Below, piece by piece: positions 29,059 to 48,663 of a stretch of DNA of 64,000 nucleotides (within the stretch, counting starts at the first letter, position 1; the number at the start of each line of letters is the position of its first letter). The notes beneath the pieces were generated by a model. That model was not told the DNA's origin and did not search any database. It was given only the letters and a program-made list of their open reading frames with translations. The stretch is from IMG/VR virus record IMGVR_UViG_3300044692_000046, positions 1 through 64,000 of that record; one strand, written 5' to 3'. The DNA is from a virus. A program made the translations under genes and the position numbers.

Positions 29059-29859
29059 TCAGTTCGACCTGCGCGAGTTGCTGGTGCTGCTGGTCTTCTC
29101 GCACACCACCGCCGAGATTGTGCCAGCGTCCAACGTCAGCCACGTGTGCGCCTGCGCCGTGGTGCCGTCCGGGCAGACAGGCAGTGGATGCGCCTCGAAC
29201 CACTGCTCCACCGCCGTGGCGATCTGCTCCGCCGTGGGTGGGTCACCCTGATCGCCCTTGTCGCCCTTCGGGCCGGCCGGGCCCGTTGGGCCTGCGGGAC
29301 CCGTCGGACCTGTTGAGCCAGCCGCCGGCGGGTGCTGCGTGTACACCGCCAACACCGCGTCATACACCTGCTGCGGGGTCGGTGCGATCGCTGTCGGCGC
29401 GTGCTGCGCCAGCCAGTTGTCCACGTCCGCCATCAGCGTCGCCGGATCAGGCTGCACGTGCAGCCACTCCGGATGCTGCTGGATCGCCGCGACCACCGCC
29501 GACAGCACCTGCTCCGTGGTCGGCCCTGGGCCCTGCGGACCGGATGGGCCCGGCTCGGGCGTCACGGTCGGCTGGGCCGGGTTCGCCCGGATCTCCGACG
29601 GCGGCTTCGCCACACACTGCTGGCCGAGCTTGCGGGTCTGCGAGCACTGCGCCGACACCGCCACCGACAGCCCGTGCACTTGGTCCTGCGTGTGCGCCAA
29701 CGTCACCGACAGGATCGCCAACGCCACCACCACGACCAGCGACAGCGGCAACAGCACCCACACCATCCGGTTGATGAACCGCTGCCGGTGCCGCTCCGCC
29801 GTCTGCTGAGGCCGGACCGGCTCCGCCTCGGCTACCGTCTCGGCTGGCTGGCCGCTCAC
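29059..29859 (-). CDS. Membrane-anchored collagen-repeat protein of lysis cassette
   Basis: One TM, Cys pairs, GPT-GPA-GPK-GDK repeats; GTGA overlap. Confidence 0.7.
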   Translation of the reverse strand: MSGQPAETVAEAEPVRPQQTAERHRQRFINRMVWVLLPLSLVVVVALAILSVTLAHTQDQVHGLSVAVSAQCSQTRKLGQQCVAKPPSEIRANPAQPTVTPEPGPSGPQGPGPTTEQVLSAVVAAIQQHPEWLHVQPDPATLMADVDNWLAQHAPTAIAPTPQQVYDAVLAVYTQHPPAAGSTGPTGPAGPTGPAGPKGDKGDQGDPPTAEQIATAVEQWFEAHPLPVCPDGTTAQAHTWLTLDAGTISAVVCEKTSSTSNSRRSN

Positions 29860-30221
29860 TTGTTCACCACCACCGTGATGATCGGAGCGATGATCGACGC
29901 CAGGATCGCGCCCACGAACCCCAGGATCCCGATCCACTTGGTGCGCCTCCACTCGCCTTGGTTGCGCTCCCTGTCGGCGGCCTGGGCGTCGCGTTCACGC
30001 TCCCGCTTGCGCTGATCCTCCACCCGCGCCTGCTCCAGCGCCGCGACCCGCCGCTCGAACTCGGCCTTGAGAGCGGCGACCTCGGCGCGCAACCGCTCGT
30101 GCTTCTCCATGTACAACTCGCGCGGCAGCATCCTGCCAAGCGACTCGTTCACGGTCTCGAAGTCGTCGTGCATGTCCGCGCGGAGTTGCGCGATCTCGCG
30201 GGCTACCGCGTCATCCGCCAC
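29856..30221 (-). CDS. Coiled-coil plus C-terminal TM lysis-associated protein
   Basis: Follows endolysin; WIGILGFVGAILASIIAP TM. Confidence 0.7.
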   Translation of the reverse strand: MADDAVAREIAQLRADMHDDFETVNESLGRMLPRELYMEKHERLRAEVAALKAEFERRVAALEQARVEDQRKRERERDAQAADRERNQGEWRRTKWIGILGFVGAILASIIAPIITVVVNK

Positions 30222-30300: not shown

Positions 30301-31245
30301 TCAGGCCGCCGGCGTTCCCTGCCGGGCCATCAGCTGCTGGTAGAAGCTGTAGGTGATGAACCCGCCCTCGCTGATGCCGGCCTGCTTGAGGCCGTCGAGG
30401 TTGTCGGACAGGCTCTTGTCGCCGTTCGTCTTGGCCTGGGCCGGCGGGATGTGCACCAGCTCGCCGTTGCCGGTGAGCAGGAACCAGCCGGGCCAGGGCG
30501 TGCCCGCCGGCACCGTGTTGCGGTCGACCTGGACGATGACCATGTCGGTGTCCTCCGTTGCGTTGCTGGGAGTGGGGGTCGGCGGGGTGACCGCCGGGGT
30601 GAAGTAGCTGGTGAGCTCCGCCAGGGAGCCCTCGAAGGCGTTCGCGTCGACGCGCTGGCCGGCGACGAGCGCGCCGTCAGTGAACTGCCACAGCCGCGGC
30701 TTGAGGCCGCCGTAGCTGGCCCAGCCGGCGCCGGACGCGCCCGGGTACATCGCCGCCGCGTAGCCGCCCGCGCCGACATAGTTGCTGGACACCAGCTCCA
30801 GTCCGGCGGCAGCCAGCGGAGCGAGGCTCGGGGAGCCCATCGCCTGCCACACCCAGTGCGGCAGGTACTCCAGGCCCACCAGCTTGCCGCGCTGGCGCAT
30901 CGCCTTCGCGAACGCGAGCGCATCCGACAGCGACGGGATCGGGGCACCGGAACCGTCCGGCTCGTGGTCGATCATCACGCTGGCCACGTTCCCCAGCGCC
31001 GACGCGCACACGTCCGCCTGGTGCTGGATCGACACCTCGTACGAGGGGTACAGGAAGTGGTAGCCGCCGAACAGGCCGCCCACCGCTTTCGCCTGCGCGC
31101 GGAAGTTCGGGAACGCGCTGTCGGCCGAGCCGCCGTTGTAGCCCGTCGAACACCGGGCCATCACCGCCGAGAAGCCCTCCCGGTACACCTGCGCCAGGTC
31201 GAGGCCACCCTGGTAGAACGCGATGTCGATCGTGAACAGGGTCAT
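30301..31245 (-). CDS. Endolysin, GH25 muramidase-like
   Basis: IDIAFYQ, GGYHF, MIDHE (DxE), WQFT, VDANAF. Confidence 0.88.
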   Translation of the reverse strand: MTLFTIDIAFYQGGLDLAQVYREGFSAVMARCSTGYNGGSADSAFPNFRAQAKAVGGLFGGYHFLYPSYEVSIQHQADVCASALGNVASVMIDHEPDGSGAPIPSLSDALAFAKAMRQRGKLVGLEYLPHWVWQAMGSPSLAPLAAAGLELVSSNYVGAGGYAAAMYPGASGAGWASYGGLKPRLWQFTDGALVAGQRVDANAFEGSLAELTSYFTPAVTPPTPTPSNATEDTDMVIVQVDRNTVPAGTPWPGWFLLTGNGELVHIPPAQAKTNGDKSLSDNLDGLKQAGISEGGFITYSFYQQLMARQGTPAA

Positions 31246-31742
31246 GCCGAGCCCTCCTCGCCGGGAGTGAACTCCCACTCGTCCTTGGCCAGCCGGTCCA
31301 ACTTCCACACCGGGTACGTGATCGAGTGGATGCCCCGCGCCGCCGCACGATGGTGGATGTCGCAGAGGATCATCAAGCCACCCTCGGACTCTGCCGCGTT
31401 GAGGAAGTCCTCCTGCGAGTGGACGTCCAACTGCGGGAAGTCCGCCGCGACCTTCCGCCAGTCGATCTCGTTGAGACCCGCGAACTCCGCGATATCGTGA
31501 TGAGCTTCCAGTTGCTTCGCCCCGTGGCAGCGGTGCCCTGCCGGCAGCCCGGAGTGGATCTGGTCGATGGTCGCGCCGCCGATCCAGCAGCCCACTTTCA
31601 GCACGTGGATCAGGTGGTGCTGCGCCTGGTGGAAGACGCGGTAGTGCGGGTCGGACTCTCGTGGCCCGTGCGGCGGGTAGGCGGCCAGCTCGTGCAGGGT
31701 GCGCCGCTCGTAGTGCGCCGGCGGCGGCTGTTCATCGGCCAT
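31242..31742 (-). CDS. HNH-like His/Cys protein
   Basis: CWI...LEAHH...LCDIHH...GIH. Confidence 0.5.
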   Translation of the reverse strand: MADEQPPPAHYERRTLHELAAYPPHGPRESDPHYRVFHQAQHHLIHVLKVGCWIGGATIDQIHSGLPAGHRCHGAKQLEAHHDIAEFAGLNEIDWRKVAADFPQLDVHSQEDFLNAAESEGGLMILCDIHHRAAARGIHSITYPVWKLDRLAKDEWEFTPGEEGSA

Positions 31743-32047
31743 CAGGACACCGCGCCGGTCACCGGGTCCACCGTGTACATCACCTGGTCGTTGGTCATGC
31801 CGAACCGGCTCAGTGCGATCTGCGGCGCGCTGTCTGCCGGGGCGTACTGGTGGTAGGCGGCTACCACCGCCGTGATGAACGCCTTCGCATTCGCGTCCGT
31901 CCAGTCCGCGATGGCGCCCTGAACCGGCTGGTTCCACGGCCCATTGAACGTGTTGCCGAGGCACACCAGCACCTGGTTGCCGCCGGGGCTGCCGTCGTAG
32001 ATGGAGAGCTGGTAGGACACCTCGGTGCTTGTGAAGTCCTGGCTCAA
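31742..32047 (-). CDS. Hypothetical virion-associated protein
   Basis: Position after tail genes, GC3 bias. Confidence 0.6.
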   Translation of the reverse strand: MSQDFTSTEVSYQLSIYDGSPGGNQVLVCLGNTFNGPWNQPVQGAIADWTDANAKAFITAVVAAYHQYAPADSAPQIALSRFGMTNDQVMYTVDPVTGAVS

Positions 32048-32058
32048 GGCACTGCCTC

Positions 32059-32589
32059 TCAGGTGTGGACCCAGCGGGTCGTCATGAATGCCTGCACCAC
32101 GCCCGTTGCGGAGCCGGTGGAGATGGAGCCGCCGTTGTCCTGCAGGGCCTGCAGCTCGACGTAGTCACCGACGTTGAGGAACACAGTGCGGCCGAGCCCG
32201 AAGCCGGTGGCCGACGTGCCGGCGACCATCGTGGACTGACCGCCGTTGATCTGGGTGCCGTTGATGGCCCAGATGGACAGACGGCGGCCAGTCGCTGTGC
32301 CGGCAACGAGCGTCCAGCCGCCTTCGATCTCGTACCAGCCGGCTGTCTGGCTCGTGTAGCGGCTGGTGTTGCTGACGGTCGAGTGACCGTTGTCGGAGTC
32401 AATGTCCTCGGTGTCGTAGAGCAGGGCGGTGGCCGCGCTGGGGCCCAGCGACTGCGCAACCGTCTGCCGGAGACAGCACAGGGGCGGCGCCGACAGGTAC
32501 GCGAACGCGCTCACCGTGTTGTTGTTGATGTTGCTGGCGGTCGCTACCTCGCCGGTGGCGAACGTGTGCATGGTCGGGATCGTGGCCAC
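32059..32589 (-). CDS. Minor tail/receptor-binding protein, copy 2
   Basis: HTFATGEV...NNNTVSAF...SRYTSQTAGWY...FLNVGDYVE beta-sandwich. Confidence 0.75.
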   Translation of the reverse strand: MATIPTMHTFATGEVATASNINNNTVSAFAYLSAPPLCCLRQTVAQSLGPSAATALLYDTEDIDSDNGHSTVSNTSRYTSQTAGWYEIEGGWTLVAGTATGRRLSIWAINGTQINGGQSTMVAGTSATGFGLGRTVFLNVGDYVELQALQDNGGSISTGSATGVVQAFMTTRWVHT

Positions 32590-32622
32590 GCCCACCCCCG
32601 GATCGGTTGCTGCGGACGGGGG

Positions 32623-33159
32623 TCAGGTGTGTATCCAGCCGATGTTGAACGTCGGGAAGCAGTCGCCGCCGGAGGCCAGCGCGTTGAGCGTGATCGTGCC
32701 GGAGGTGGCCTGGATGCCGACCTCCACGTAGTCGCCCACGTTGAGGAAGCGGGTCGCCACAGCTGTCGGCGCGCAGGCGATGCTGGACGATACGTAGCCG
32801 CCGGTTTTGCCCGCCAGGAAGCTGGTGCTGCCGTTGGTTTTGAACGCCATCTGCACAACCACCGCCGACGCGCTCGACGACAGGCACTGCATGGAGGCCG
32901 TCAGGTCATACCATCCGGCCGTCTGCGCCGTGTACCGAGACGTGTTGGTGACGGTACTGTGGCCGCCGTCGCTGTCCTCGTCCTCCGTGTCGAACAAGAC
33001 GCTCGCCCATCCGGACAGGGAGGTCTGGAGCACCGTCTGCCGCAGCACCGCCAGCGGTGGGGCGCTGGAGAAGGCGAACGCGGAGACCGTGTTGTTGTTC
33101 AGGTTGCTGGGCGTCACCACTTCGCCGGCGGTGAAGGTGTGCATGCTGGGGATGATCAC
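32623..33159 (-). CDS. Minor tail/receptor-binding protein, copy 1
   Basis: Clear paralogue of 32059-32589. Confidence 0.75.
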   Translation of the reverse strand: MIIPSMHTFTAGEVVTPSNLNNNTVSAFAFSSAPPLAVLRQTVLQTSLSGWASVLFDTEDEDSDGGHSTVTNTSRYTAQTAGWYDLTASMQCLSSSASAVVVQMAFKTNGSTSFLAGKTGGYVSSSIACAPTAVATRFLNVGDYVEVGIQATSGTITLNALASGGDCFPTFNIGWIHT

Positions 33160-33174
33160 GCGGCCATCCCCCGA

Positions 33175-33639
33175 TCACCTGCTGATGCGCCACTCGTGGA
33201 AGCGGCGCGGGATCTCGGCCAGATGCTCGTGGTTGACCTGCGGCGCGTCCCAGTCGTGGGGCAGCCAGCCGACCGAGCCGCGGCACCGGGCCTCACGGCA
33301 GGAGATCGGCGGCTTGATGTGGTAGGTGTTGCCCTGCTCGTCGTGCCACACCGTGTCCAGCCAGACTCGCGGCCACGGGTCCGGCAGGAGTCGCAGCGGC
33401 TGGCCGGAGATGTTGTCCAGGTACCAGACGTTCGCGTCGGGCGTCCCGTCGTCGTTCAGGAACGGGTGCCCCTGAACTGCCGTGACGACCGCCTCGACGA
33501 GGTCTCCGAACTGCTGAGCCCGGTACCAGACGATGTCCCCGACCTCGGGGATCGGTGTCGGTCGCGGCCGGGCGTGCACCGACAGCGTGATCTCCTCGCG
33601 GGTCAGGGGCACGGAGCGAAGGTCAGGGTCGTAGTCCAC
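33175..33639 (-). CDS. Hypothetical protein
   Basis: GAGGGGG RBS; between tail genes. Confidence 0.65.
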   Translation of the reverse strand: MDYDPDLRSVPLTREEITLSVHARPRPTPIPEVGDIVWYRAQQFGDLVEAVVTAVQGHPFLNDDGTPDANVWYLDNISGQPLRLLPDPWPRVWLDTVWHDEQGNTYHIKPPISCREARCRGSVGWLPHDWDAPQVNHEHLAEIPRRFHEWRISR

Positions 33640-33648
33640 GCCACCCCC

Positions 33649-36156
33649 TCAAAAGGCGCACACGGCGGAGACATCGAGCTGGCCGAACACCGGGTCCCCG
33701 ACGATCCACACCTGCTGCCGGTCCACCGGGGATGCCTGGATGCCGACGGTCCACTGCCCGGCAGAGAAGTCGATGCTGTGGTCGAGCTTCTCCAGGAAGA
33801 AGTCGTGCGACATGGTGAACACCGGGTTGCGGCGCTTGACCGTGATCCTCTGGTTGAGCTCCATCCCCAGCACCGTCGCGAACGCCCCGTACGGGTTGGA
33901 GCCAGCGTCGATCGTCAAGGCGCCGAGCCGCTCGACCGGTGTCTTGTACCGCCACAGCAGGTAGTTCGCGTGGTCGATGGTCTCGGAGTCGTACGCGATC
34001 CCGATGGTCTGCGTCAACTGTCGGTCGAAGTTCGCCAGGATCGAGGTCGGGTCGGTGACGTGCTGGACGATCCCGCCGGATCGGGTGACTTCGACATCGT
34101 TGTACACCTGCGTCGGGTCCAGCGAGTAGTTGATGTCGTCCAGGTACGGGACCTCAAGCTCGCCGAACGTCCACTGCGAGGTGGTGGCCAGGAAGCGGCT
34201 GTTGCGGCCCTTGAACCGCAGCGTGCCGCCCGCGTCGACGAAGAGGAAGCCCTGCTCGCTGATCGCCACGTCGTTCATCACGTCGAGAGCGAAGTTGCCG
34301 TTCTGGGCCAGCGAGAACCCCATCGTCGACGACCCCACATCAGCGAAGCTGGGGATCGTGTAGTAGATGTTCGCCAACCGCGTCACCCGCGTGCCGCTCG
34401 ACTCGCCCCAGAACCCACCGCCAGCCGTGTTGAGCGTGCTGATCTGGCTTGAGGACAGCACCGAGTTCCACAGGGCGACATGTGCGATCTCGCCGTCGAA
34501 CATCTGAGTCACGCGGCCGGTGTCGTTCTCCCCACCCACCATCACCGACGTGGCGTTCGACGGGAGCATGCCACCCAGCGAGCTGGTGGTCACAGTCGTC
34601 GAGGCCGCCGACGTGCCGTCGATCCAGACCGTGACCGTCGTGTTCGTCGAGTTCTGCGACACCGTGGACACGATGTGGTGCCAGTTGCCGTCGTTGATCT
34701 TCTTGGTGGTGATCGCCTGCACATAGCCAGCGGACGCGCCACCACCCACCGCATAGCCAACCTCCGCGACGATCGTCGCGTCGCCCTGCATGAACATACC
34801 GATCGGCAGGGTGGTGTTGTTGCCGGTAACCTCCCCGACGAGCGCAATGTCGCCGGCGACGTTCGGTGCGACGCCGACCGCGTCACAGTGCACCCAGGCG
34901 GCCAAGGTCGCGCCCCACGCTGAGCCCGGCGTAGCAGGAACGGCGACGATGCCGGTTGTCTTGTTCGCCGACCGGCCGGCCCCGATCGCGGTGCCGTTGC
35001 TGGAAGTCGCCTGGTCGGGGAAGAACTGGGCAGCCACCCCGCCGGGGTCTCCGGTGATGGCCGACGATTGACCAGCGGAGACCCCGCTGCCCGCACCGTA
35101 CTTCGACACCATCAGGCCGAGGCTCGGGCCGTTGTTGCCGCTGGCCTCGGCGAAACTGGAAGCGCCCTGAGGCTCCCAGAGAGGCCAGTAGTAGGCCGGC
35201 TGGTAGGACAGGATCTGGTTCGCGACCTCGCCATGGACTGCTTGCTGGCTCAACACCGCCAGGGAGTCCACGCACGTGATCTCCGCCATCCCGTAGGTGC
35301 CCTGGAAATCCCACCGGGACGGCCACCGCTCGACGTAGCCCGTGAACACCGAGTACAGCACCGGCCCGCTCGTCGACCAGGTGGTGGCGGTGGCTCCGCT
35401 CTCCTGCTGGATGGCGTCCACGTACACGGTGCCCGTGTTGGCCGGGCTGGGCGCGTACACCCACAGGTTGATGCGGGGCTGCGTCGCCGTCCACGTGACC
35501 GTGATGCGCGTCCAGGCTCCCGTGGTGCTCGTGCCCGCACCGGTGGCCGCGAACGACGCGGGCGGGTCAACGAGGCTAGTGTCGATACCGAGCTGCACCG
35601 TGTACGCGGCGGTCAGCCACACGTAGGCGCTGAACGTGTACTGCTGGCCGGGGGTAACGGTCAGCTTCCAGCGCATCCCCTGCAGGCCGCCGCCGGACGA
35701 CACCGGCCACGAGACGCTCTGCGTGCCCTGGAACGCCTGCGCAGTGGACACCGTGGGGGGCGAGGTCAGGAACCAGTTGATATCCCCCGCCGGCAAGCCA
35801 CCAACAGCCGCCGCCTCGAATCCCGGGTCCATCTTGGTCAGCATGTTCGGCCCGCCCGCCGCAGTGTTCGTCGGCGGCCACAGCGCCTGCGTGATGATGC
35901 GGCGGTAGGGCACCACGTTCGGGTAATAGGCGGAGGCGGTGTTAGCCGGGTTGAACGCCTCGTTCGAGTCCAGCAGTACCATGTTCGCGGTGCCGGCCTG
36001 GATCGTGTCCAGCTCGTACTGCCGGCCCCGCGTGGTGCTGAGGCTCTGCACCTGACTGGAGATGTCCGTCCACACCGGCGTCACGTTGCTCGCTGGGCCA
36101 GCGTTGAACGCCACCTGCGTGGTGAGGATCGGCCAGTTCGGGTTGGGAGAGGTCAT
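33649..36156 (-). CDS. Tail-tip/baseplate-hub protein with CBM-like and LamG-like domains, copy 2
   Basis: WTDISS...RGRQYELDTIQAG; PGQQYTFSAYV; INDGNWHHIV...GEIAHVALWN. Confidence 0.85.
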   Translation of the reverse strand: MTSPNPNWPILTTQVAFNAGPASNVTPVWTDISSQVQSLSTTRGRQYELDTIQAGTANMVLLDSNEAFNPANTASAYYPNVVPYRRIITQALWPPTNTAAGGPNMLTKMDPGFEAAAVGGLPAGDINWFLTSPPTVSTAQAFQGTQSVSWPVSSGGGLQGMRWKLTVTPGQQYTFSAYVWLTAAYTVQLGIDTSLVDPPASFAATGAGTSTTGAWTRITVTWTATQPRINLWVYAPSPANTGTVYVDAIQQESGATATTWSTSGPVLYSVFTGYVERWPSRWDFQGTYGMAEITCVDSLAVLSQQAVHGEVANQILSYQPAYYWPLWEPQGASSFAEASGNNGPSLGLMVSKYGAGSGVSAGQSSAITGDPGGVAAQFFPDQATSSNGTAIGAGRSANKTTGIVAVPATPGSAWGATLAAWVHCDAVGVAPNVAGDIALVGEVTGNNTTLPIGMFMQGDATIVAEVGYAVGGGASAGYVQAITTKKINDGNWHHIVSTVSQNSTNTTVTVWIDGTSAASTTVTTSSLGGMLPSNATSVMVGGENDTGRVTQMFDGEIAHVALWNSVLSSSQISTLNTAGGGFWGESSGTRVTRLANIYYTIPSFADVGSSTMGFSLAQNGNFALDVMNDVAISEQGFLFVDAGGTLRFKGRNSRFLATTSQWTFGELEVPYLDDINYSLDPTQVYNDVEVTRSGGIVQHVTDPTSILANFDRQLTQTIGIAYDSETIDHANYLLWRYKTPVERLGALTIDAGSNPYGAFATVLGMELNQRITVKRRNPVFTMSHDFFLEKLDHSIDFSAGQWTVGIQASPVDRQQVWIVGDPVFGQLDVSAVCAF

Positions 36157-36174
36157 GCTCGACCTCCCCCGTGC

Positions 36175-39100
36175 TCACCAGCCCAGCTTGGTTGTGCTGC
36201 CGAGCACCCCGAACACAGGATCGTTGAGTAGCCACGCCTGTTGCAGGTCGGCGGGGCTGGCCTGGACCGACAGATCCCATTCGCCGGCCGCGAAGTTGAC
36301 GCTCACGTCGAGCTTCTCGATGAAGTAGTCGTCGATGTCGGTGAACGCCGAGGTGCGGCGCTTCACCGTCGCCCGGTCGTTGAGCTCCATGCCGAGCACC
36401 ACCGACCACGCGGTCGGCTTGCCGCCTGCGGAGATGGTCAGCGTGTCCAGTCGGCGCAGCGGCTGCTTGTACCGCGACAAGAGATAGTTCGCGTGGTCTA
36501 CCGTCTCGCTGTCCGAGGCCGTGTTGACCTCGGCGGTGAGCTGCCGGTCCCCGTAGGCCAGCATGCTCGGTCCGTCCGTCACGTGGCAGACGGTGCCGCC
36601 GTAGAAGTTGTCCGACGAGTTGATGCCCGACTGGAAGTTCAGGTACGAGGACGCGTACGCGGGCAGCGCCTGCCCACCCACCCGGCTGATCGTGATGTCG
36701 TTGTAGACCTGCGTGGGGTCCTCCGAGAACGCCACATCCGCCTCGTACGGCGTCTCCTGCTCCCCCAGCGTCCACTTCGGTGTGGCGGTCTGGAACCGGG
36801 CGGTGCGCGCCTTGAAGGTGACCGTGCCCGCCTTGTCGGCGTACAGCAGCCCACCCTCGCCCAGCACTACACCGTTCAGGGCGTCCAGGGCGTAGTTGGC
36901 GCGCTGCACCGGGGACACGTCCTGCACCGACTGGCCGGCGTCCACCGCCGTCGTGCCGGTGAACACGTAGCCCAACCAGCGGCTCACCCGCGCCCCGGAC
37001 TTCTCGGTGAAGAACGTATACGGCCCCCAGCCGATCTGCCCGGCGGAGTAGATGTTGCCGATCGCGCCCGACGGCAGCGCCGAGTTCCACAGGCTGACGT
37101 GTGCGACCTGACCGTTCCAGGTCTGCCCGGTCAGGCCGAGCGTGGACTGCCCGCCGACCTGCACGATGCTCGCCCCGGCCGGAAGCTGACCGCCCAGACT
37201 CGCTGTGGAGGCTGTGGCGGAGGCATTCTGTGTGTTGTCGACCTGCAGCGAGACCGTGGTGTTGCCGGCCGGGTCCTGGATGACCTGCGCGACGAACATG
37301 CGCATCTTGCCGTCGGCGTCGTTCGTGCCGGTCTCCATCGCGGTGAGCGTCTGACCGCCCGGCCCTTCGTAGGTGACGAAGGCGTTGCCGTAGTTGGTGG
37401 TGAATGCGGACGCCGCGGGCCCGGCCTCGACCTGCATGCCGTCGATGTAGACGGTGCTGTTGTTGGCGGGCGCCGAGGAGTAGACCCACATGTTCTGCGA
37501 CGTGCCGTTCGCGGTGAAGCTAACGGTCATCGTGACCCAGGTGTTCACCGAGGTCATGCCCGACGAGTTCGCCAGCCACGACGCCGGCGGGATACCCGAG
37601 TCGGCCGCCGCGCCCAGCAGCATCGTGTTCGCGGCGGTCTGCCGCACGCCGCACGAGAACGTGTACTGCTGACCGGAGGTCAGCCCGAACGCCGTGATGA
37701 GCACACCCTGCAGCCCGGAACCCGCGCCGATGGGGAACTGTGCGGAGTTCGCGCCGTACAGGTGCTGCGTGTTGGTGACCGTCATCGCGCCGATCAGCAG
37801 CGACCCAAGGTAGGTGGGTGTCGCCCCGGAGGACTGCCCCTCGAAGCTGGGGTCCTGCTGCCACAGCACGTTCGTTCCGGTCACGCCGATCGTGAGGGGC
37901 TGCGCCTGGTTGGAGCCCTGCGGGGGACACACCAGCGTGGCCAGGGTCTGCGTGGTGCCTTTGCGGCTGTCCGTGGGCAGGTTGGCGCCCGCCCACACGA
38001 TCAGCGTCGCCGACCAGGAGACGGCCGGGTTCGCCGGGATCGCCTGGATGCCCGTCGAGCCGCTGGTGCCGACAGGACCGGCGTTGAGGATCTGGCAGTC
38101 CATCTGCGAGGCGTTGGTGTTGTTGCCGGGGGCGAACGTGACCCGCACCCCGCCGTTGTCCCCCGGGATCGGCAGAGCCGAGTCGCCCGCCACCAAGCCA
38201 TTGCCGGCGCCGAACGGGCCGGTGTACACGCTCAGCGGCGGCTGCCCGGCAAGGGTGGTGTTGGCGAACGCCTGGCTTCCCTGCGGCTCCCACAGGGGCC
38301 AGTAGTAGGTGGGGGCCAGTGCCTCGATCTGGTTGGACAGCTCCGAGTCGAGGGTGGCCTGCGACAGCACACCCAGTGCGTCGACGGCGGTGATCTGACA
38401 GATGCCGTAGGTGCCCTGATGATTCCAGGTCGACGGCCAGCGCTCCACGAACCCGGCGAAGATCGGGTAGATGACGGGGCCGATGCTCGACCAGGTGGAC
38501 GCCGAGGAGCCGGTCTCCATCTGGATCGCGTCCAGCCACATCGACCCCGACAGGGACGGCGCCGTGGACCCCACGTACACCTGATGCGCTGTCGATGTCG
38601 CGGTGAACGTCACCGACAGGCGCGTCCACGTGGTCGTGGCGGTGGTGTTCGTGCCGCCAGCGCCGCCGTTGATGAAGATAGCCGTCGTGTTGCCGGCGGT
38701 CTGGTAGACGTAGGCGGAGATAGTGTATTGCTCGCCCGGCACGCACAGCAGGTTCCAGCCGGTGACCTGCTCCCCCGAGCCGCCCGTCACTGTCCATGCC
38801 AGCGACTTGGTGCCCTGGAATGCCTGCGCCGACGAGACGTTCGGGGTGGTGGCGAACGTGACAATCCACGACGGGACCGCGGTGTACGACTCGAACGACG
38901 GGTCATACGGGCCAGGCGCCACCGCCGAGGAGTTCAGCAGGTTCGGGCCACCGGCCGCAGTGTTACCGGGTGGCCACATCGCGGCCAAGGCCAGCCGCCG
39001 GTACGGCACCACGTTCGGGTAGAACGGACTGGCGGTGTTGGCCGGGTTGAGCTGCTCGTCGGAGTCTCTCAGAGTCGCCGTGAACTCGCCGGCCTGCACC

Positions 39101-39258
39101 TGATCCAACTCGTACTGCCGGCCGCGCGAGACGGTGAAGTCCAGCAGCCGGTCGGTCAGGTCCGTCCAGGTCGGCGTGCCCGCGGCCGGGTCATTCGGGT
39201 TGATGTTGAATGCGACCTTGCACCACAGCAGCGGCCAGTTCGGGTTCGGGGAAGACAT
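36175..39258 (-). CDS. Tail-tip/baseplate-hub protein with two CBM-like and a LamG-like domain, copy 1
   Basis: Directly after tape measure; full-length paralogue of 33649-36156 with an extra CBM-like insert. Confidence 0.85.
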   Translation of the reverse strand: MSSPNPNWPLLWCKVAFNINPNDPAAGTPTWTDLTDRLLDFTVSRGRQYELDQVQAGEFTATLRDSDEQLNPANTASPFYPNVVPYRRLALAAMWPPGNTAAGGPNLLNSSAVAPGPYDPSFESYTAVPSWIVTFATTPNVSSAQAFQGTKSLAWTVTGGSGEQVTGWNLLCVPGEQYTISAYVYQTAGNTTAIFINGGAGGTNTTATTTWTRLSVTFTATSTAHQVYVGSTAPSLSGSMWLDAIQMETGSSASTWSSIGPVIYPIFAGFVERWPSTWNHQGTYGICQITAVDALGVLSQATLDSELSNQIEALAPTYYWPLWEPQGSQAFANTTLAGQPPLSVYTGPFGAGNGLVAGDSALPIPGDNGGVRVTFAPGNNTNASQMDCQILNAGPVGTSGSTGIQAIPANPAVSWSATLIVWAGANLPTDSRKGTTQTLATLVCPPQGSNQAQPLTIGVTGTNVLWQQDPSFEGQSSGATPTYLGSLLIGAMTVTNTQHLYGANSAQFPIGAGSGLQGVLITAFGLTSGQQYTFSCGVRQTAANTMLLGAAADSGIPPASWLANSSGMTSVNTWVTMTVSFTANGTSQNMWVYSSAPANNSTVYIDGMQVEAGPAASAFTTNYGNAFVTYEGPGGQTLTAMETGTNDADGKMRMFVAQVIQDPAGNTTVSLQVDNTQNASATASTASLGGQLPAGASIVQVGGQSTLGLTGQTWNGQVAHVSLWNSALPSGAIGNIYSAGQIGWGPYTFFTEKSGARVSRWLGYVFTGTTAVDAGQSVQDVSPVQRANYALDALNGVVLGEGGLLYADKAGTVTFKARTARFQTATPKWTLGEQETPYEADVAFSEDPTQVYNDITISRVGGQALPAYASSYLNFQSGINSSDNFYGGTVCHVTDGPSMLAYGDRQLTAEVNTASDSETVDHANYLLSRYKQPLRRLDTLTISAGGKPTAWSVVLGMELNDRATVKRRTSAFTDIDDYFIEKLDVSVNFAAGEWDLSVQASPADLQQAWLLNDPVFGVLGSTTKLGW

Positions 39259-39276
39259 CCAGCCCTCCCCGAACCG

Positions 39277-42200
39277 CTACGACAGCATGGTCCCCGACTT
39301 GGCGGAGTTACGCCGCTTGTGCTGCTGCACTAGGGCCGCCAGGTTCGGGTACACCGCCTTAGCGAAGGTCTTGCCGTCAAGGTCGAAGTACAGCGTCACC
39401 GGCCCCGAGTTCGCGCCGGACGTTGCCGCGCTGTTCGCGCCGACCGCCAGCGACGCCGTGTTCACCGCCAGCGTCCCAGTCTGCGTGCCGATACCGACTG
39501 GGCCAGCCGCGCCGGCCGCCGCCACCTGGAGCGTGGGGCTGCCGAACCCAGCCATCGCCGTGTTGGCGAGCGCCTTGGCCTGGTCGGACACGGTCCCACT
39601 CATCGACTTGAGGCCGTTCACGAGACCCTGCGCGATGTTCTGACCAAACGAGTGGAACACCTTCGACGGACTGGAGATGCCGAGGGCTTTCATGAACCCG
39701 CTACCGATGGAGCCCGCGAAGTCCTTGACCCACTTCACCACCGTGTCGGCCATCGCCTTCAAGCCGTTCAACAGCCCGGTGATGATGTTCTTCCCGAAGT
39801 TCACCGCATCAGAGACCAACTGGTTCCAGAGCTTGGAGATCTGCCCCGGCAGCCCGCTCACCACCGACACGACCTTGCCAGGCAAGGAGGTGAAGAAACT
39901 GACCACGTCGTTCCACAGCTTCTTGACCTCTGCGATCGCGCCGTTGTACAGGTCGGTGAAGAACTTCGCGATCTTGCCTGGCATCGACGACACCCACGTG
40001 ATGGCCTTGTTCAGGCCAGCCACGAACGTGCTGTACAGGTCGTCCCAGGTCTTCGACACCCAACTCGTCACGCCGTTGTAGGTGTCGACCGCGAACTTCT
40101 CGATCTTCCCTGGCAGGGAGGTCACCCAGTTGATGACCTTCGTGCCACCCTGAACAAAGAAGTTGTACACGTCCGACCAGGTCTGCTTGACCAGCCGCAC
40201 GACCTCATGCCAGTTGTCGACGAAGAACTTCTCAATCCTCGCCGGCAACGACTTCACGAAGTTGACAACCTTCGTGGCGCCCTGCACCCAGATCCGGTAG
40301 CCCTCATCCCACAGGTGGGTGATCGCATTCCAGATCTTGACAGGCATCTCAATGAACTGCTTGACGATCCACCCGAGCGCGTAGCCGATCGCGAATCCCA
40401 GCTTCTTGAGCCCGGCGTCGAAGATCTTCGGAAGCTGCTCGATCCCCTTGAGGACGTTGCCCGGCAGCGCCTTCACGAAGCCGATGAACTTGTCGAACGC
40501 GGCGCCCGCCTTCTTCGGCAACCCCTCGACCCACTTGATGGCCGCCGAGATCGCTCCGCCGATGGCGTGCACGGCGTCCCAGAAGATCGCCTTGATGTCC
40601 TTCCACAAGGCGGAGAAGAACTTGCTGACCTGCTTCCAGTGGGTGACCAGCAAGATCACGATCGCTATCAGGGCGGCGATCGCCAAGATGATCAAGCCGA
40701 CGGGGTTGGCGTCCATCGCGATGTTCAAGATCCACTGGGCGACGGCCGCTGCCTTCTCCGCGATCGCAGAGGCGACCACGGCGACCTTCTCAGCCACCCA
40801 CGCGGCGGCGGTCTTCACTGCCTGGGCCGCCTGCAATACCAGCGACTTGGTGACGCTGCCGATGGCCATCGCAGCCTGCTTTGCCCCGGAGGCGATCGTG
40901 CTGAACAGGGAGCCGAGCTTGTTGGCGACGGTGGCCTCCTTGACCACCTTTTCGTTCTCGACCACCGCGTCCGAGACGCCCTTGAAGCCCTTGATGAGAC
41001 TGGAGGTGGTGGACACCGCTGACTTGCCGATATCCACCATGCCCTTGACGAACGACATGGTGGTCTTGCCGGCCCATGTCACCACCGCGATCGACAGCAC
41101 CCCGGCGATCACGCCCGCCAGCACCTTGAGGGTGCCGGTGTTCTTCTCCGCCCATTTCATGGCGTCGATCAGCGGCGGGATCAGCTTCGTGCCGAGCTGG
41201 ATGCCAGCCTTCTCCGCTACCTCACGCAACTGGGCGAGCTGGAAGTTGAAGGTCTTCTGCACCTCGGCGAAGCCGGAGACGCTCTTGTTGCCCTTGTTGT
41301 AGGCGTTGATCGTGTTGTTGACGTTGTGCTCCATGCCAACAAATCCGTCGGAGCCCAGTTGCAGGGCGAGCTGGAGGCCGTTGGCGCCGCCCAGCATGTT
41401 CTTGAGTTCCTGCTGGTAGGTCTTGGCCTGCGGGGTGCCGTTCTTCAGTTCCTGTGAAAAGCCCTTGGCCTTGTTGTTCATGGCCACGAACTGCTGCACC
41501 AGTGCCGCCTGGTCGGCCGGCAGACCCTTCAGTTCCAGCCGGTAGTCCGCGAGCGTGATCTTTCCGTCGGCGTAGGACTGCGCGACCTGCTTCGCCGCGT
41601 TCGGCAGCTTCGACAGGGCGACCTGGGCGTCCTGCGCTGCAGCGGCGGATTGGTTGAACGCGTTCAGCAGGACCAGGCCGCTCGGCCCCATGTGCTGCAG
41701 CACAGCCCGTGATAGGTCGAGGACCGTGCCCGACAGGCCCTTCTGCCCAAGCTGCTGGGACACATCGGTAGCGCTGATCCCCAGTTGCGCCATCGTGTTC
41801 ACGGCGACGTTCGACGGCGCTTCCAGCGACCGGATCGTGAACGCCATCTGCTGGGTGGCTTCCTGCGCCGACACACCGTGATCGGTCAAGGTGGCCAGCA
41901 CGCCGGTCATGTCGCCGAGCTTGATGCCCGCCGAGGCCGCCAGCGCCTGCACAGTGGACAGGCTCGACGCGAAGTCCTGGAAGGTGGTCTTACCCTCGGA
42001 CACGGCCGCGATGTACGTGTTCACCACACGGGTCGAGTCGCTGGCCTTGAGGTTGTAGTCCCGCAACGCGGTCGTCACCGCGTCCGCGACCACTGACAGG
42101 TCGGCGTTCTCGGACTTGGCGCCCTTCGCCGCCGCGGTCAGCACCGTCAGCCCCTGCGCGCCGTGGAAGCCCGCCGACTCGATGGTGTACAGGCCCTGCG

Positions 42201-42525
42201 CGAGCTGCTTGGTGGACGTGCCGGTAGCCACGGCGATGTCCAGCACGCCCTTGGACACCTGCGCCAGCGCCTTCGTGGACTCGCCGGCGCTGGTGACCAG
42301 TCGAGTCATGTTGGCCTGGAAGTCGCCGGCCATCTTGACGCTGACGACCGCGACTCCGGCTGCTGCGGCGACTGTCGCTCCGCCCAGCTTCGACAGGGCC
42401 CCGCTGACGCCGCCCATCTTCGAGATGAAGGACTCGCCGGTCTTGCTGGCGTCGTTGAAACCCTTCGTCAGCGGGTCGGAGACGGTGCGCAGGGTGATGA
42501 ACAGGTCCGCGATCTCGGAGGCCAC
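39277..42525 (-). CDS. Tape measure protein
   Basis: 1082 aa, Ala/Gly-rich, TP901-like core, ANPVGLII, Trp/Phe periodic repeats. Confidence 0.92.
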   Translation of the reverse strand: MASEIADLFITLRTVSDPLTKGFNDASKTGESFISKMGGVSGALSKLGGATVAAAAGVAVVSVKMAGDFQANMTRLVTSAGESTKALAQVSKGVLDIAVATGTSTKQLAQGLYTIESAGFHGAQGLTVLTAAAKGAKSENADLSVVADAVTTALRDYNLKASDSTRVVNTYIAAVSEGKTTFQDFASSLSTVQALAASAGIKLGDMTGVLATLTDHGVSAQEATQQMAFTIRSLEAPSNVAVNTMAQLGISATDVSQQLGQKGLSGTVLDLSRAVLQHMGPSGLVLLNAFNQSAAAAQDAQVALSKLPNAAKQVAQSYADGKITLADYRLELKGLPADQAALVQQFVAMNNKAKGFSQELKNGTPQAKTYQQELKNMLGGANGLQLALQLGSDGFVGMEHNVNNTINAYNKGNKSVSGFAEVQKTFNFQLAQLREVAEKAGIQLGTKLIPPLIDAMKWAEKNTGTLKVLAGVIAGVLSIAVVTWAGKTTMSFVKGMVDIGKSAVSTTSSLIKGFKGVSDAVVENEKVVKEATVANKLGSLFSTIASGAKQAAMAIGSVTKSLVLQAAQAVKTAAAWVAEKVAVVASAIAEKAAAVAQWILNIAMDANPVGLIILAIAALIAIVILLVTHWKQVSKFFSALWKDIKAIFWDAVHAIGGAISAAIKWVEGLPKKAGAAFDKFIGFVKALPGNVLKGIEQLPKIFDAGLKKLGFAIGYALGWIVKQFIEMPVKIWNAITHLWDEGYRIWVQGATKVVNFVKSLPARIEKFFVDNWHEVVRLVKQTWSDVYNFFVQGGTKVINWVTSLPGKIEKFAVDTYNGVTSWVSKTWDDLYSTFVAGLNKAITWVSSMPGKIAKFFTDLYNGAIAEVKKLWNDVVSFFTSLPGKVVSVVSGLPGQISKLWNQLVSDAVNFGKNIITGLLNGLKAMADTVVKWVKDFAGSIGSGFMKALGISSPSKVFHSFGQNIAQGLVNGLKSMSGTVSDQAKALANTAMAGFGSPTLQVAAAGAAGPVGIGTQTGTLAVNTASLAVGANSAATSGANSGPVTLYFDLDGKTFAKAVYPNLAALVQQHKRRNSAKSGTMLS

Positions 42526-42574
42526 AACAACCTCCCCGATCCGGCGTCAGGGGTCGGGAAGGTCGCGTGCGGTG

Positions 42575-43039
42575 TCAGGCGAAGCGGGCCCAGGCCTCGC
42601 CGTACATCGCCTTGTAGATCTGCGGTGCCGCGATCGTGCCCACGAACAGGCCCGCAGGTCTCAGGAACGGGAACTTGGCGCCGTTGCGCAGACCCTTCGC
42701 CTCCAGGTACCAGCCGACCAGCGACGCGTTCGTCTTGCTGTACGGGGCGCGCCTGCCGACAGCCGTGCCTATCAGGCACTCCCAGCCAGTGGGGATACGC
42801 TTCACGATCGACCGGTCGAGTGACGCCCGCAGCGTTCCCGAGATCATCGCCGGTCCGTTCCCCGGGTGCGCCGGTGTGGGCGTGCCCCGGGCGTGCCGAC
42901 CGTTGCCGGCGTTGATGCGGGCCTGCTTCACGATGGCGTTCGCGACCGGCTCCAGTGCTGCGCGGGAGCGGCGGCCCGACTCTGCGGCCACCTTCGAGAA
43001 CACCATCTCCAGCACGCCAGGGCGTAGTTCGGTGGCCAC
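42575..43039 (-). CDS. HK97 gp10-like tail completion protein
   Basis: PAMISGTLRASL...YLE...FPFLRPA. Confidence 0.6.
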   Translation of the reverse strand: MATELRPGVLEMVFSKVAAESGRRSRAALEPVANAIVKQARINAGNGRHARGTPTPAHPGNGPAMISGTLRASLDRSIVKRIPTGWECLIGTAVGRRAPYSKTNASLVGWYLEAKGLRNGAKFPFLRPAGLFVGTIAAPQIYKAMYGEAWARFA

Positions 43040-43681: not shown

Positions 43682-44854
43682 TCAGTAACTGGTCGACTGG
43701 AAGTTGTTCAGCGTCGCCTGAACCGCGCCGCCGTCAGTGCTGTTGTAGATGCCGGAGATGGAGTAGTCGGCCTGGACGTAGCCCTGGCCGAGATCGCGCT
43801 TGCCCTTGTACCAGCCGGACTTGCTCATCGTGAACGACAGCTTGTTGCCGCCGAACGCGATCGGCTGGGCCAACGACGCCACGAGCGGCTGCTGCGACCA
43901 CTGCGCGAACAGGTTCAGATCGAGCTGGTTCTCGAAGATGGCCTTGAAAGTTCCATCGCAATCCAACGTCCCGGCGAAGATCTCGCGCGGGATCTGCACG
44001 CCGTTACTGGTGTGCAGAGCTTCCACGGCCCGCTTGATGGTCAGGTCGAGGGTCAGGCCGCGGGTGGAGGCGGTGCCGGCCTGAGTCTGCGTCCACTCCC
44101 AGCCCAGCATCGGCTGATCCTGCGTGTAGGTCTCCGACACGGTGGTCTGCACCGCGCCGGGGAACGCGGTCAGGTCAGCGGTGAGGCTGACGCCCGCCTT
44201 CGGGTCGATCTTGACCTGGAGCTGGCTCATCTTCGCCCCGACGTACCCGAGGTACTGGAGGGTGTCGTAGACGGTCAGCGAGTAGGTGGGCCAGGTCTGG
44301 CCCGGCGACTGCTTGAACAGGTGCGTGGACTGGCTGATCACCGTGCACGTCGGCGCGGTGTGCGCGTACTGGAGCGTGGTCCCGCCGTTCGGGTTCGACG
44401 TGCTGGTCAGCGGGATCGTGTACGGGCCGGCACCCGACGGGGACCCGGTGACCGCGTACTCGGTGTTCGCACCGCCCGTGTCCTGAATCTGAATCGTGGA
44501 ACCGGCGGTGATGGACGCAGTGGTCTGGATGGAGTTCGCGCCAGCCGTCGACGACGTGGACAGGGTGGTGGACACGCCGGCGGTCACCGTGTCAGGGCCG
44601 ATGATGCCGCGCAGCCAGTGCCCGGTCAGCAGCGGGTAGGCGAGCACGTCGATCGACCAGGTGGCCTGCTGCACACCCGGGTACAACCCTTGCAATGTCG
44701 TGTCGTTGCCCCGGATGCTCTCGTCCTTGATGCTCTCCGTGACGTCTTCGAAGTCGCCCTTCGTGAAGGGGACAGCGATCACGGGGCTCTGGTAGGTGTT
44801 CGGCGTCGTCTCCTTGGCGATGCCGAGGGTGGACAGGTGGGAGAGCTGAGTCAC
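43682..44854 (-). CDS. Major tail (tube) protein with internal beta-rich insert
   Basis: LGIAKETT N-terminus, TYSLT, tube-like C-terminus; synteny. Confidence 0.8.
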   Translation of the reverse strand: MTQLSHLSTLGIAKETTPNTYQSPVIAVPFTKGDFEDVTESIKDESIRGNDTTLQGLYPGVQQATWSIDVLAYPLLTGHWLRGIIGPDTVTAGVSTTLSTSSTAGANSIQTTASITAGSTIQIQDTGGANTEYAVTGSPSGAGPYTIPLTSTSNPNGGTTLQYAHTAPTCTVISQSTHLFKQSPGQTWPTYSLTVYDTLQYLGYVGAKMSQLQVKIDPKAGVSLTADLTAFPGAVQTTVSETYTQDQPMLGWEWTQTQAGTASTRGLTLDLTIKRAVEALHTSNGVQIPREIFAGTLDCDGTFKAIFENQLDLNLFAQWSQQPLVASLAQPIAFGGNKLSFTMSKSGWYKGKRDLGQGYVQADYSISGIYNSTDGGAVQATLNNFQSTSY

Positions 44855-45200: not shown

Positions 45201-45719
45201 TCAGGTGACGATCTCGGGGTCGTCCGCGCTGTAGGTGACGCTCGCGGTGAGGATCCCGGCCGGAATGTCCACCTCTGGGTCGCCGTATTGGACGTCGATC
45301 TCCGCCCGGCCGTCCGCCTCGGCGACCGACAAGAACCGACCGCCGTGAGTGTGGTCGTCGCGAAACGCTCGGATCCGCAGCAGCAGATCCTCGACCGCGT
45401 TGTCCAACGCCTGCTGTTCCTGCTCGGCGATGTCAACCGCCTGTGTCGTGGAGCCGATCTTCCAGTACAGCTTCAGTCGGAAGTCGTGCGAGTTGCGGAC
45501 CCGCTGCATCGCCACGCGGTGGCTCTGGAGCCGTGCCCTGGTGACGTAGATGCGGTTGACGGTGGTCTTCGAGGTGCGCGGCACGTACGCCTGCACCACA
45601 TCCCACAGGCCACCCTGCGCCACGACAAGCGCCGGCAGCGTCTGCCCCGTCGTGCCCGATGTGATGGCTGCTCCGGACAGCCAGTCCGCTTCACGCTGCA
45701 CCGCGTCCGCAGAGCTCAC
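45201..45719 (-). CDS. Tail terminator-like protein
   Basis: Synteny; DDHTHGG motif. Confidence 0.6.
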   Translation of the reverse strand: MSSADAVQREADWLSGAAITSGTTGQTLPALVVAQGGLWDVVQAYVPRTSKTTVNRIYVTRARLQSHRVAMQRVRNSHDFRLKLYWKIGSTTQAVDIAEQEQQALDNAVEDLLLRIRAFRDDHTHGGRFLSVAEADGRAEIDVQYGDPEVDIPAGILTASVTYSADDPEIVT

Positions 45720-46231
45720 TTCGCCGCCCTCCCCCGAACCACAGGACGGTGATGGCGGTGCCCGAGCACCTGCTCGCGGTGCCGCCGATGCCGGTTGCGG
45801 TGCTGGTCGATCGTCCGGTGGCGCGTGTCCAGCTTCGCCACCGCCGAGCGCACCGCGGCCTTCCGGCCGTGATGACGCGAGGCTGTTGGATGCTTGGCCT
45901 TCGCGTGTCGGGCCACCGCCGCGCGGTGCTGGATTGACCCGGACCGGTGCCGGCCCTTCAACGCCTTCGAGATCTTCGCCTTCGTGGCCGCCGACAGCTT
46001 GTGCCCGACGTGATGCCTACCGCGCAACGCCGCCGAGATCTTCGCCTTGGTCGCGGCGCTTAGCCGGTGGCCTTTGTGGTGCCGGCCGCGCAGAGCCTTC
46101 GAAATCTTCGCGCGGGCCGCCGCCGACATCGGATGGCCCTTGTGGGGGCGCTTCTTGCCCTTCATCCGCGCGGACATCTTCGCCCGCGCCACCGCGGACA
46201 GGTGGTAGCCCTTGCGGTGCTTCCACGCCAC
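45716..46231 (-). CDS. Highly basic protein with four NUMOD3-like repeats
   Basis: HKGH(R/P/K)(L/M)SAA(T/A)(K/R)AKISxALxGRH repeats, about 22-aa period. Confidence 0.7.
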   Translation of the reverse strand: MAWKHRKGYHLSAVARAKMSARMKGKKRPHKGHPMSAAARAKISKALRGRHHKGHRLSAATKAKISAALRGRHHVGHKLSAATKAKISKALKGRHRSGSIQHRAAVARHAKAKHPTASRHHGRKAAVRSAVAKLDTRHRTIDQHRNRHRRHREQVLGHRHHRPVVRGRAAK

Positions 46232-47253: not shown

Positions 47254-48663
47254 TCAGATGGAGCTCACGATGCCGTGGCCCCGGCCCACGTACTTCGGAC
47301 CCCGCAGAGCGAGGGCCGTGTCCGTGACCAGCGCGAACGGCAGGGTGTCGGGGCTGGTGACAGTCGGCGCCAGCGGGATCACCTGCATGTCCCGGGTGTA
47401 CGGGCGGACCATGAAGTTCGGGTCCCGCGGGATCAGGTAGATGTCCTCGACCGGGTTCGCCGAGCCGTTCAGGCGGGCGAACATGTTGCCGAGCACGCCG
47501 CCCGCGCCGACGCCCTGGTAGGCGGCGGCCTGCGCGGTGCCGGTGTTGCCGGAGGAGTTGGTCAGCAGCGCCGCGCCGGTGTCGATGATCGACGTGGTGG
47601 CGGTGCCGGTGGTGTCGAACGCGTCGACCACGCCCACGAACACCGGCGTGCCAGCCGCGCCCGTCGACCGGTACACCTTGTACAGGATCGGGGTGAGGCC
47701 GTCAGGGAAGTTCGTCGGCGTCGAGAACGACAGGGTGACGGTGCTGGTCGAGCCGGTGGTGGTCTGGGTGACCTCCGCGCTGGCCAGCGTCTCACCGAAC
47801 CGGGCCACGACCGCCGACACCGAGTACCGGTAGGTCGCCGCCGCCAGCGTGCCGCCCGTGGTGGCGGTCGCCGTCGACACGGTGCTCATCGCCGTGGACC
47901 GGGGGCTCAGGAACGACGACTTCACCAGCGGGATGTCGCGGTAGGACGGCACGTTCAGACCGGCGGCGATCTCGACGGTCGGCGCCATGAACCGCTGCTG
48001 GTTGGTCAGCAGCTGCCCGACGCTGGACACCATGCGCGGCGACATCACGAACATCCAGTCCGAGCCGATCGGCTGGCCGGCGTTGGTCTCCACCAGGTCG
48101 ATGATCTCGTCGAGGTTCTTCAGGGCGAGGGTGCCGCCACCCGACGCCGACGCGTACTCGATCGCGTTGACGTAGGCGTTGGAGCCGGTGCCCTGGGAGA
48201 AGTTCGCGGCCAGGTAGTCTAGGCCGGAGCAGATCGGGTAGGCGCCGGCGCTGGTGGCGCCGTCGTTGCCCCACACGAACGCGTTCTCCACCGACCACAG
48301 CATCGACTGGACAGTGCCGTCGACTTCGAGCTGCCGCAGATCGCCCACCAGGTCGCGGGTGACGGTCTGCGCGAAGCCGGTCACCGACCCGACGGCCTGG
48401 AACAGCCTGATGTTGTAGACGGCCTGCTCGTAGGTGGAGTTGCCGATCGGGCGGGCGCCGCCGTCGACCACGCCGCCGGCGTCGGGCCGGTTCACCCGGC
48501 GGTTGAAGAAGTACTGGGTGGAGCCCCACTGCTTGCTGGGCAGCGCGCGCAGCAGAGGCGCGTAGCGGCGCTGGTACTCCAGCAGGAGCGGGTCGATCTG
48601 CTTCTGGATCAGGGGGGTAACTGACGCCGCAGCGGTCAGAGCCTCCTGGAGTTCGGTGGGCAC
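47254..48663 (-). CDS. Major capsid protein with internal Ig/Fn3-like domain
   Basis: Synteny after protease/scaffold; TYRYSVSAV...GET...TVTLSF...YKVYR insert. Confidence 0.85.
   Translation of the reverse strand: MPTELQEALTAAASVTPLIQKQIDPLLLEYQRRYAPLLRALPSKQWGSTQYFFNRRVNRPDAGGVVDGGARPIGNSTYEQAVYNIRLFQAVGSVTGFAQTVTRDLVGDLRQLEVDGTVQSMLWSVENAFVWGNDGATSAGAYPICSGLDYLAANFSQGTGSNAYVNAIEYASASGGGTLALKNLDEIIDLVETNAGQPIGSDWMFVMSPRMVSSVGQLLTNQQRFMAPTVEIAAGLNVPSYRDIPLVKSSFLSPRSTAMSTVSTATATTGGTLAAATYRYSVSAVVARFGETLASAEVTQTTTGSTSTVTLSFSTPTNFPDGLTPILYKVYRSTGAAGTPVFVGVVDAFDTTGTATTSIIDTGAALLTNSSGNTGTAQAAAYQGVGAGGVLGNMFARLNGSANPVEDIYLIPRDPNFMVRPYTRDMQVIPLAPTVTSPDTLPFALVTDTALALRGPKYVGRGHGIVSSI

Follow-up and report, generated by a model that had tools for sequence, protein, structure and literature searches.

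Paired tail-tip hub genes and paired knob genes in an uncultivated soil phage of actinobacteria

Layout of the tail-tip module

We analysed a window of 64,000 nucleotides from the 95-kb genome of an uncultivated soil phage of actinobacteria. On the minus strand of this window, the genes run in the order tape measure, hub 1, hub 2, a gene for a 154-aa protein, knob 1, and knob 2. The tape measure protein (39277..42525; 1082 amino acids) was recognized by the Pfam model PhageMin_Tail (E = 7e-28) and by many PHROG tape-measure families (best E = 8e-64). It is followed after an 18-nt gap by hub 1 (36175..39258; 1027 amino acids), and another gap of 18 nt separates hub 1 from hub 2 (33649..36156; 835 amino acids). 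Next comes the single-copy gene for the 154-aa protein (33175..33639), ahead of the knobs. This protein had no match in Pfam or PHROG and no useful match in the Atlas; in the closest relatives with a single hub (L006, L007, L009, and L010), homologues occupy the equivalent position. Knob 1 (32623..33159; 178 amino acids) is the more diverged of the two knobs. Knob 2 (32059..32595; 176-178 amino acids) probably starts at a GTG at 32589, as an earlier annotation of this DNA, made without database searches, had also chosen.

That first-pass annotation described both hub genes and both knob genes as intact open reading frames with ribosome-binding sites. We agree: all four frames are intact, and each is preceded by a G-rich ribosome-binding site. 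We found no minus-strand terminator inside the module.

Downstream of the hubs, there are only the 154-aa gene, the knobs, and lysis genes. We considered whether the phage might be a myovirus, given the best structural matches of the hub and the missing distal tail protein (see below), but the absence of wedge genes from this region led us to reject this. Farther along, after the endolysin, 29059-29952 encodes a 297-aa protein with a transmembrane segment and a short collagen-like run. We considered it as a fiber, but given the transmembrane segment and the shortness of the collagen-like run, a place in the lysis cassette is more likely.

Domains of the hubs and knobs

The two large proteins are full-length paralogues that share their termini and internal blocks, as had been noted at first pass. 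Residues 1-426 of hub 1 align with residues 1-425 of hub 2 (46% identity, E = 9e-116), residues 649-1019 align with residues 489-827 (46% identity, E = 2e-92), and all of the quoted sequence blocks are present. The proposal that these proteins are tail hubs also held up. They are gp27-like, and the gp27/gp44 hub fold covers the whole core; hub 1 also matches phrog_5313 (E = 3e-59). (A sequence search of solved structures matched the LamG and CBM parts and did not match the hub core.) Hub 2 aligns from end to end with other hubs by fold and has no extra domain resembling a distal tail protein (Dit). Nor did the Dit profile (Sipho_tail, PF05709) match anything in the 95-kb genome at E values up to 1.

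The gp27-like core of each hub is interrupted by lectin-like inserts. In hub 2, these are one carbohydrate-binding module (CBM, at about residues 96-264) and one LamG domain (about residues 346-580). Hub 1 has a CBM-like insert at about residues 96-258 (38485..38973, minus strand), which shares 48% identity with the hub 2 CBM, and a LamG-like insert with a second CBM nested inside it (about residues 451-625; 37384..37908, minus strand). The nested domain, which is absent from hub 2, is real: residues 454-622 of hub 1, which split the LamG-like region in two, match the CBM of hub 2 (38% identity, E = 3e-25). Its closest relatives come from six other long-form hubs, each with a CBM nested at this site. 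CBM_4_9 (PF02018; cut-off 25.9 bits) scores 37.6 bits in hub 1 across two stretches, with the best stretch of the first insert at residues 145-229. In hub 2, it scores 22.3 bits, which is under the cut-off, and the family profile matches the CBMs of xylanases (E = 5e-4). Laminin_G_3 (PF13385) scores 56.9 bits in hub 2, which is above the gathering cut-off, and the region has the LamG jellyroll fold. The inserts had been described as diverged. They are, with 40-47% identity between the hubs, but only modestly more so than the hub core (51-57%).

The two small proteins are paralogues as well (46% identity, E = 7e-45). They had been proposed to be of the receptor-binding type, and their fold bears this out: the knob has the ten-strand gC1q/TNF-type jellyroll and matches knob and receptor-binding domains of phages. 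Knob 2 consists of a short N-terminal extension, one helix, and the C1q/TNF-like jellyroll. Knob 1 aligns with the family throughout, and its identity to the one knob found in each of the closest relatives is 37-42%. C1q/TNF-like domains are known from the central-spike knob of phi812, the short-fiber binding domain of cyanophage A-1(L), the receptor-binding domain of TM4 gp23, and BclA. Those are C-terminal heads of long fibers or spikes, whereas the knob in our phage is a free-standing protein of 178 amino acids with an N-terminal extension of 35 residues.

Rarity, retention, and recombination

As expected at first pass, phages of this family have as a rule one hub gene, placed after the tape measure gene, and double hubs are not the norm: none of about 150 related loci examined has two hubs. 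Single-hub relatives are carried by Streptomyces, Amycolatopsis, and Dactylosporangium. Most of the loci with neighboring open reading frames listed run directly from the tape measure gene to the hub, in the same order as here. The family has no cultured member. (Hub 2 had no tblastn match in cultured phage genomes, and the major capsid protein matched only Leptospira phages, at 27% identity.)

A pair of long and short hubs does recur on three other contigs (92605, 36997, and 20936 bp), although the two hubs were paired through equal contig size only. (The sister contigs are of 92605, 36997, 20936, 19077, 21996, and 37579 bp.) Hub-1-type and hub-2-type orthologues each form one starred clade (SH-aLRT 94 and 99, respectively) with the same three phages. 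Hub orthologues in other phages are 78-83% and 43-55% identical, and the hub 1 orthologue P0009 is 83% identical. At least two further lineages of phages appear to have kept the pair.

Neither copy is decaying. Hub 1 keeps 91 of 97 family-conserved positions and hub 2 keeps 88 of 97, which is about 91-94% and is as many as in single-copy relatives; this argues against the neutral decay of one copy, which the first-pass annotation had raised as a concern. The two hubs also have three derived substitutions in common. Consistent differences between the hub-1 and hub-2 lineages are confined to 1-6% of the columns in each domain (5-6% in the core and 1% in the first CBM), as would fit two proteins with the same structural role. 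The dN/dS ratio of the paralogues (pS = 0.51, pN = 0.37) is uninformative because synonymous sites are near saturation at the genome's GC3 of 92%.

It had also been suggested that the conserved blocks permit domain swapping. The history of the family lends this indirect support: hubs with a nested CBM do not cluster in the tree of hub cores, and this conflict between the core and nested-CBM histories indicates that recombination probably occurred within the hub family. For this phage, the suggestion fares less well, as DNA identity between its two hub genes is only 55-69%, which makes them poor substrates for homologous recombination today. Among contigs aligned to the region, we found no hub hybrids and only chance joints of 20-25 nt with unrelated contigs, although rare variants are invisible to contigs. 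Finally, there is no sign of the switching systems whose absence had been noted before: we found no reverse transcriptase such as that of a diversity-generating retroelement, or DGR (no match to RVT_1), no resolvase-type invertase above the cut-off, and no inverted repeats flanking the module. A sub-threshold match to Resolvase (13.5 bits) lies at 55373-55639, far from the module.

Possible roles of a second hub

The tail of a siphophage starts on its hub, and a virion normally has exactly one kind of hub. Our leading explanation, to which we give about an even chance of being right, is that the doubled hub would widen the binding repertoire of the tail tip through alternative or mixed trimers. 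Both large genes would encode working hubs of the gp27, Tal, or baseplate-hub kind, and both small genes would encode trimeric C1q-like knobs, the putative receptor-binding parts of the tip. Old tandem duplications within the phage lineage would account for the doubling, which would have been kept since. The five genes that follow the tape measure gene would be transcribed as a single late unit, and both hubs would be made together; the gaps of 18 nt, the ribosome-binding site of each gene, and the lack of an internal terminator are signals of such co-expression. We infer that both hubs are present in virions. The trimer would show lectin-like modules, CBM and LamG, to which the long copy adds a second CBM. 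The two versions could form separate homotrimers on different virions or could mix within a trimer, and the tail tip could then hold a wider set of cell-wall glycans with no need for DNA inversion or a DGR. This presumes that the two hubs differ in binding specificity. But the inserts are barely more diverged than the core, so divergence is not focused where a change in specificity would be expected.

A broader version of this explanation seems to us possible but rather unlikely. Here the lineage would constitutively build two kinds of tail tip, or tips of mixed subunits, from a single late operon by doubling its hub, as host-range bet-hedging without DNA rearrangement. Over evolution, co-resident paralogues would exchange hub cores and lectin inserts, as the discordance of the nested-CBM history with the core tree suggests.

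Instead of alternative hubs, every virion might contain both, in different and non-redundant positions. For example, hub 1 might be an adaptor ring under the tail tube, in the place that a distal tail protein takes in other siphophages, and hub 2 might close the tip below. In tail modules, gene order usually mirrors the order of assembly, and hub 1 adjoins the tape measure gene. The lack of a recognizable distal tail protein would also fit, as would the whole extra domain that the long form always has and the slightly higher frequency of fixed differences in the core than in the first CBM. But single-hub relatives also run from the tape measure gene to the hub, which leaves no empty position to fill, and the two copies keep the same family-conserved positions. 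Also, to our knowledge, gp27-like trimers do not have a tube-like lower face, and we know of no structural precedent for stacking two of them. Overall, we think that two stacked hubs are unlikely.

Less likely still, only one copy might be used in virions, with the other being redundant, in the process of being lost, or active outside the tail. In line with this, no RNA run was found to contain this DNA. But both reading frames are intact with ribosome-binding sites, both keep most of the family-conserved positions, and both have orthologues in other phages; such retention at such divergence would not be expected of a neutral copy. Finally, because the source is a soil metagenome, an assembler might have joined the hub genes of two co-occurring phages. 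We find this hardly credible. A second assembler produced a 48,029-bp contig that covers 31000-43000 with zero differences and an even depth of about 22x, which argues that the tandem pair is not a misassembly (although it was probably built from the same reads). Furthermore, the low DNA identity of the two genes and the recurrence of the long-plus-short pair on contigs of three other sizes both speak against an artefact.

Alternative or mixed hubs would have an outcome that is familiar from other phages. Mu (by inversion of its G segment), the Bordetella phage with a DGR, dual-fiber T5-like phages, and dual-tailspike phages all obtain more than one binding specificity per genome. They do so by duplicating or varying fibers or spikes or by rearranging DNA, whereas here it is the central hub that is doubled. 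The described hubs, such as the tail-associated lysin or baseplate hub proteins of siphophages (T5 pb3 and the BHP of mycobacteriophage Douge) and gp27 or Mu gp44 in contractile systems, are each encoded by one gene and sit under a hexameric distal tail protein. In contrast, our phage has two full-length paralogues, no recognizable distal tail protein, and two or three lectin-like jellyrolls inserted in the hub core. The VgrG paralogues of type VI secretion are another point of comparison, but they belong to a contractile secretion machine of bacteria rather than to a phage tail tip, and they vary in effector domains rather than in carbohydrate-binding modules. Mixed trimers of our hubs are hypothetical.

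With two diverged hubs kept in one lineage, the question arises how a trimeric initiator of tail assembly picks its subunits. The lineage is also a natural case for asking whether lectin-decorated hubs set the host range of actinophages, whose receptors are, as far as we know, poorly characterized. In practical terms, phages against mycobacterial and Streptomyces-like hosts are of interest. If nothing beyond the ordinary reading is true, then this is a tidy duplication of receptor-binding genes in an uncultivated phage family.

As for how the knobs relate to the hubs, a complex prediction for hub 2 with knob residues 1-45 scored 0.01, which we read as no answer in either direction. Some relatives have one hub and three knob genes. 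This argues against a simple pairing of one hub with one knob, and it implies that extra knobs do not require extra hubs.

Two hub genes in one late module

The doubled hub is real, and it is rare: both copies are intact in several lineages of a siphophage family that otherwise has a single hub. The window takes in the first 64 kb of an IMG/VR record, a 95,148-bp genome with direct terminal repeats, rated complete, with a G+C content of about 68%, from a soil metagenome assembly. The late module of this genome lies on the minus strand. It starts with what is, from its position alone, probably a terminase gene and continues through genes for the major capsid protein (47254-48663), a 390-aa tail protein (43682-44854), and the tape measure protein (39277-42525). 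Then come the long hub paralogue (hub 1, 36175-39258), the short one (hub 2, 33649-36156), a 154-aa protein (33175-33639), and two small C1q/TNF-like paralogues, knob 1 (32623-33159) and knob 2 (32059-32595; probable start 32589). An open reading frame with a weak HNH-endonuclease PHROG match (31242-31964; E = 2.4e-5) separates knob 2 from the GH25-type endolysin gene (30301-31308); its true start is probably internal, giving a product of about 166 aa. We found no recognisable family for the 154-aa protein, which has homologues at the equivalent position in the closest relatives.

The gaps between the tape measure gene and hub 1 and between the two hubs are each 18 nt, and we found no terminator-like sites on the minus strand within 32000-39300. 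Both hubs and the tape measure gene almost certainly share a transcript. As the first-pass annotation had noted, all four hub and knob genes have ribosome-binding sites; these are G-rich.

The proposed paralogy also holds. The first ~425 and the last 340-370 residues of the hubs are 46% identical (E = 9e-116 and 2e-92), every shared block quoted earlier is present in both, and the knobs are 46% identical to each other. (Structures were predicted for hub 2 and knob 2, and their respective paralogues were assigned by homology.) The second CBM reported in hub 1 is an extra domain of ~175 residues (451-625), nested between two LamG-like halves and 38% identical to the CBM of hub 2. Synonymous sites are saturated between the paralogues, so dN/dS is uninformative.

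How rare and how old the doubling is

The hub family has 266 confirmed matches in IMG/VR alone and also occurs in prophages of Streptomyces, Amycolatopsis, Dactylosporangium, and other actinomycetes; we did not find it among cultured phages. Using the conserved N- and C-terminal hub core as the query, we examined 80 IMG/VR loci with flanks of up to 10 kb, and all 80 had a single hub. Neither did we find a second hub in ~90 additional metagenomic and reference-genome loci, which partly overlap the IMG/VR set. One hub is thus the norm in this family, as the first-pass annotation stated for siphoviruses.

A typical relative has the tape measure gene, a hub, and one knob of ~178 aa. Several related loci have a single hub with two or three knobs (L030, L034/L094, L071/L176, L132/133, L135, and L172), so knob duplication is recurrent in the family, while hub duplication is not. 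Three tandem C1q-like knobs lie beside a single hub at L030:12836-14510, L034:12838-14466, L071:12953-15353, L132:12601-14181, L172:12864-14510, and L176:12962-15353; Streptomyces prophages are among the loci with such arrays.

The nearest hub relatives in a large protein database include both long forms (with the nested CBM) and short forms (without it). Some form long/short pairs on contigs of equal size: P0009 and P0007 (92,605 bp), P0326 and P0324 (20,936 bp), and P0011 and P0008 (36,997 bp). In a tree of the hub core (431 columns), hub 1 (P0001) groups with P0009 and P0011, and hub 2 (P0002) groups with P0007 and P0008, as separate clades (SH-aLRT 94 and 99). This implies that the duplication is older than the split of these phages. 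Three derived substitutions, at sites that are conserved elsewhere, are common to all six proteins. Neither hub is decaying: hub 1 retains 91 of 97 family-conserved positions and hub 2 retains 88 of 97, numbers that fall within the spread seen in single-copy relatives. Few differences have become fixed between the hub 1 and hub 2 lineages (1-6% of columns per domain); what durably sets them apart is the nested CBM.

Mosaic evolution of the hub gene

The nested CBM of hub 1 is closest to CBMs at the identical site in six other long forms, which points to one origin for this architecture. Yet the hub-core alignment strongly rejects the seven long forms as a clade (log-likelihood difference 131; p-AU = 1e-13), for a group that was named post hoc from the tree. 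One short form clusters with two long forms, and P0010, P0013, P0014, and P0016 are interleaved with P0012, P0015, and P0017, long and short forms together. Core and insert histories therefore differ, which points either to gene conversion among hubs sharing a genome or to exchange from one phage to another. The suggestion that the conserved blocks permit domain swapping fits this family history, but not the present genome: the two hub genes are only 55-69% identical in nucleotides, and their longest near-exact stretch is ~31 nt at 90%, so ongoing homologous exchange between them is unlikely.

Possible uses of two hubs

Both look fully competent as hubs, and single-hub relatives show that one suffices for a tail of this kind. 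These two points favour interchangeable hubs, which would form alternative homotrimers or mixed trimers, each type displaying a different set of lectin-like modules, with the knobs contributing further binding heads. We give this reading an even chance. We found no reverse transcriptase, invertase above the cut-off, or flanking inverted repeats, in agreement with the first-pass annotation; with no switching device, any variety of tips would be constitutive. Duplication of receptor-binding genes is known from other cases; here it involves the hub itself.

The tandem hubs are very unlikely to be an assembly artefact, since a second assembler yielded a 48-kb contig that spans 31000-43000 with zero differences. 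That one hub is silent or redundant also seems improbable, as this fits poorly with retention across lineages. Somewhat less doubtful, though still unlikely, is that the hubs are stacked and have distinct roles. A distal tail protein is not recognisable in this phage (PF05709 matches nothing in the 95-kb genome), as stacking might lead one to expect, but single-hub relatives likewise have no recognisable one. Here (36175-42525) and in most relatives (loci L006-L085), the tape measure and hub genes are immediate neighbours. In this family, the hub may take up the tail tube with no classical Dit involved, or a Dit may be present but unrecognised.

The tail tip of this family is modular: in a 106-kb relative, the tape measure gene is separated from the hub by a gene for a 1089-aa protein (L018:6387-9656) that combines a polysaccharide-deacetylase-like region with minor-tail repeats. 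The lineage of our phage has no relative among the cultured phages of the collection searched; the only cultured-phage matches of its major capsid protein are Leptospira phages LE3 and LE4 (27% identity). Amid the head-tail connector genes is a 171-aa protein (45716-46231, minus strand) in which Pfam finds three NUMOD3 motifs (E = 6e-16). A 297-aa protein 3' of the endolysin gene (29059-29952, minus strand) contains a single transmembrane segment as well as a short collagen-like stretch of Gly-X-Y. The matches to tail-fibre PHROGs stem solely from that repeat, and a membrane protein of the lysis cassette is the likelier assignment.
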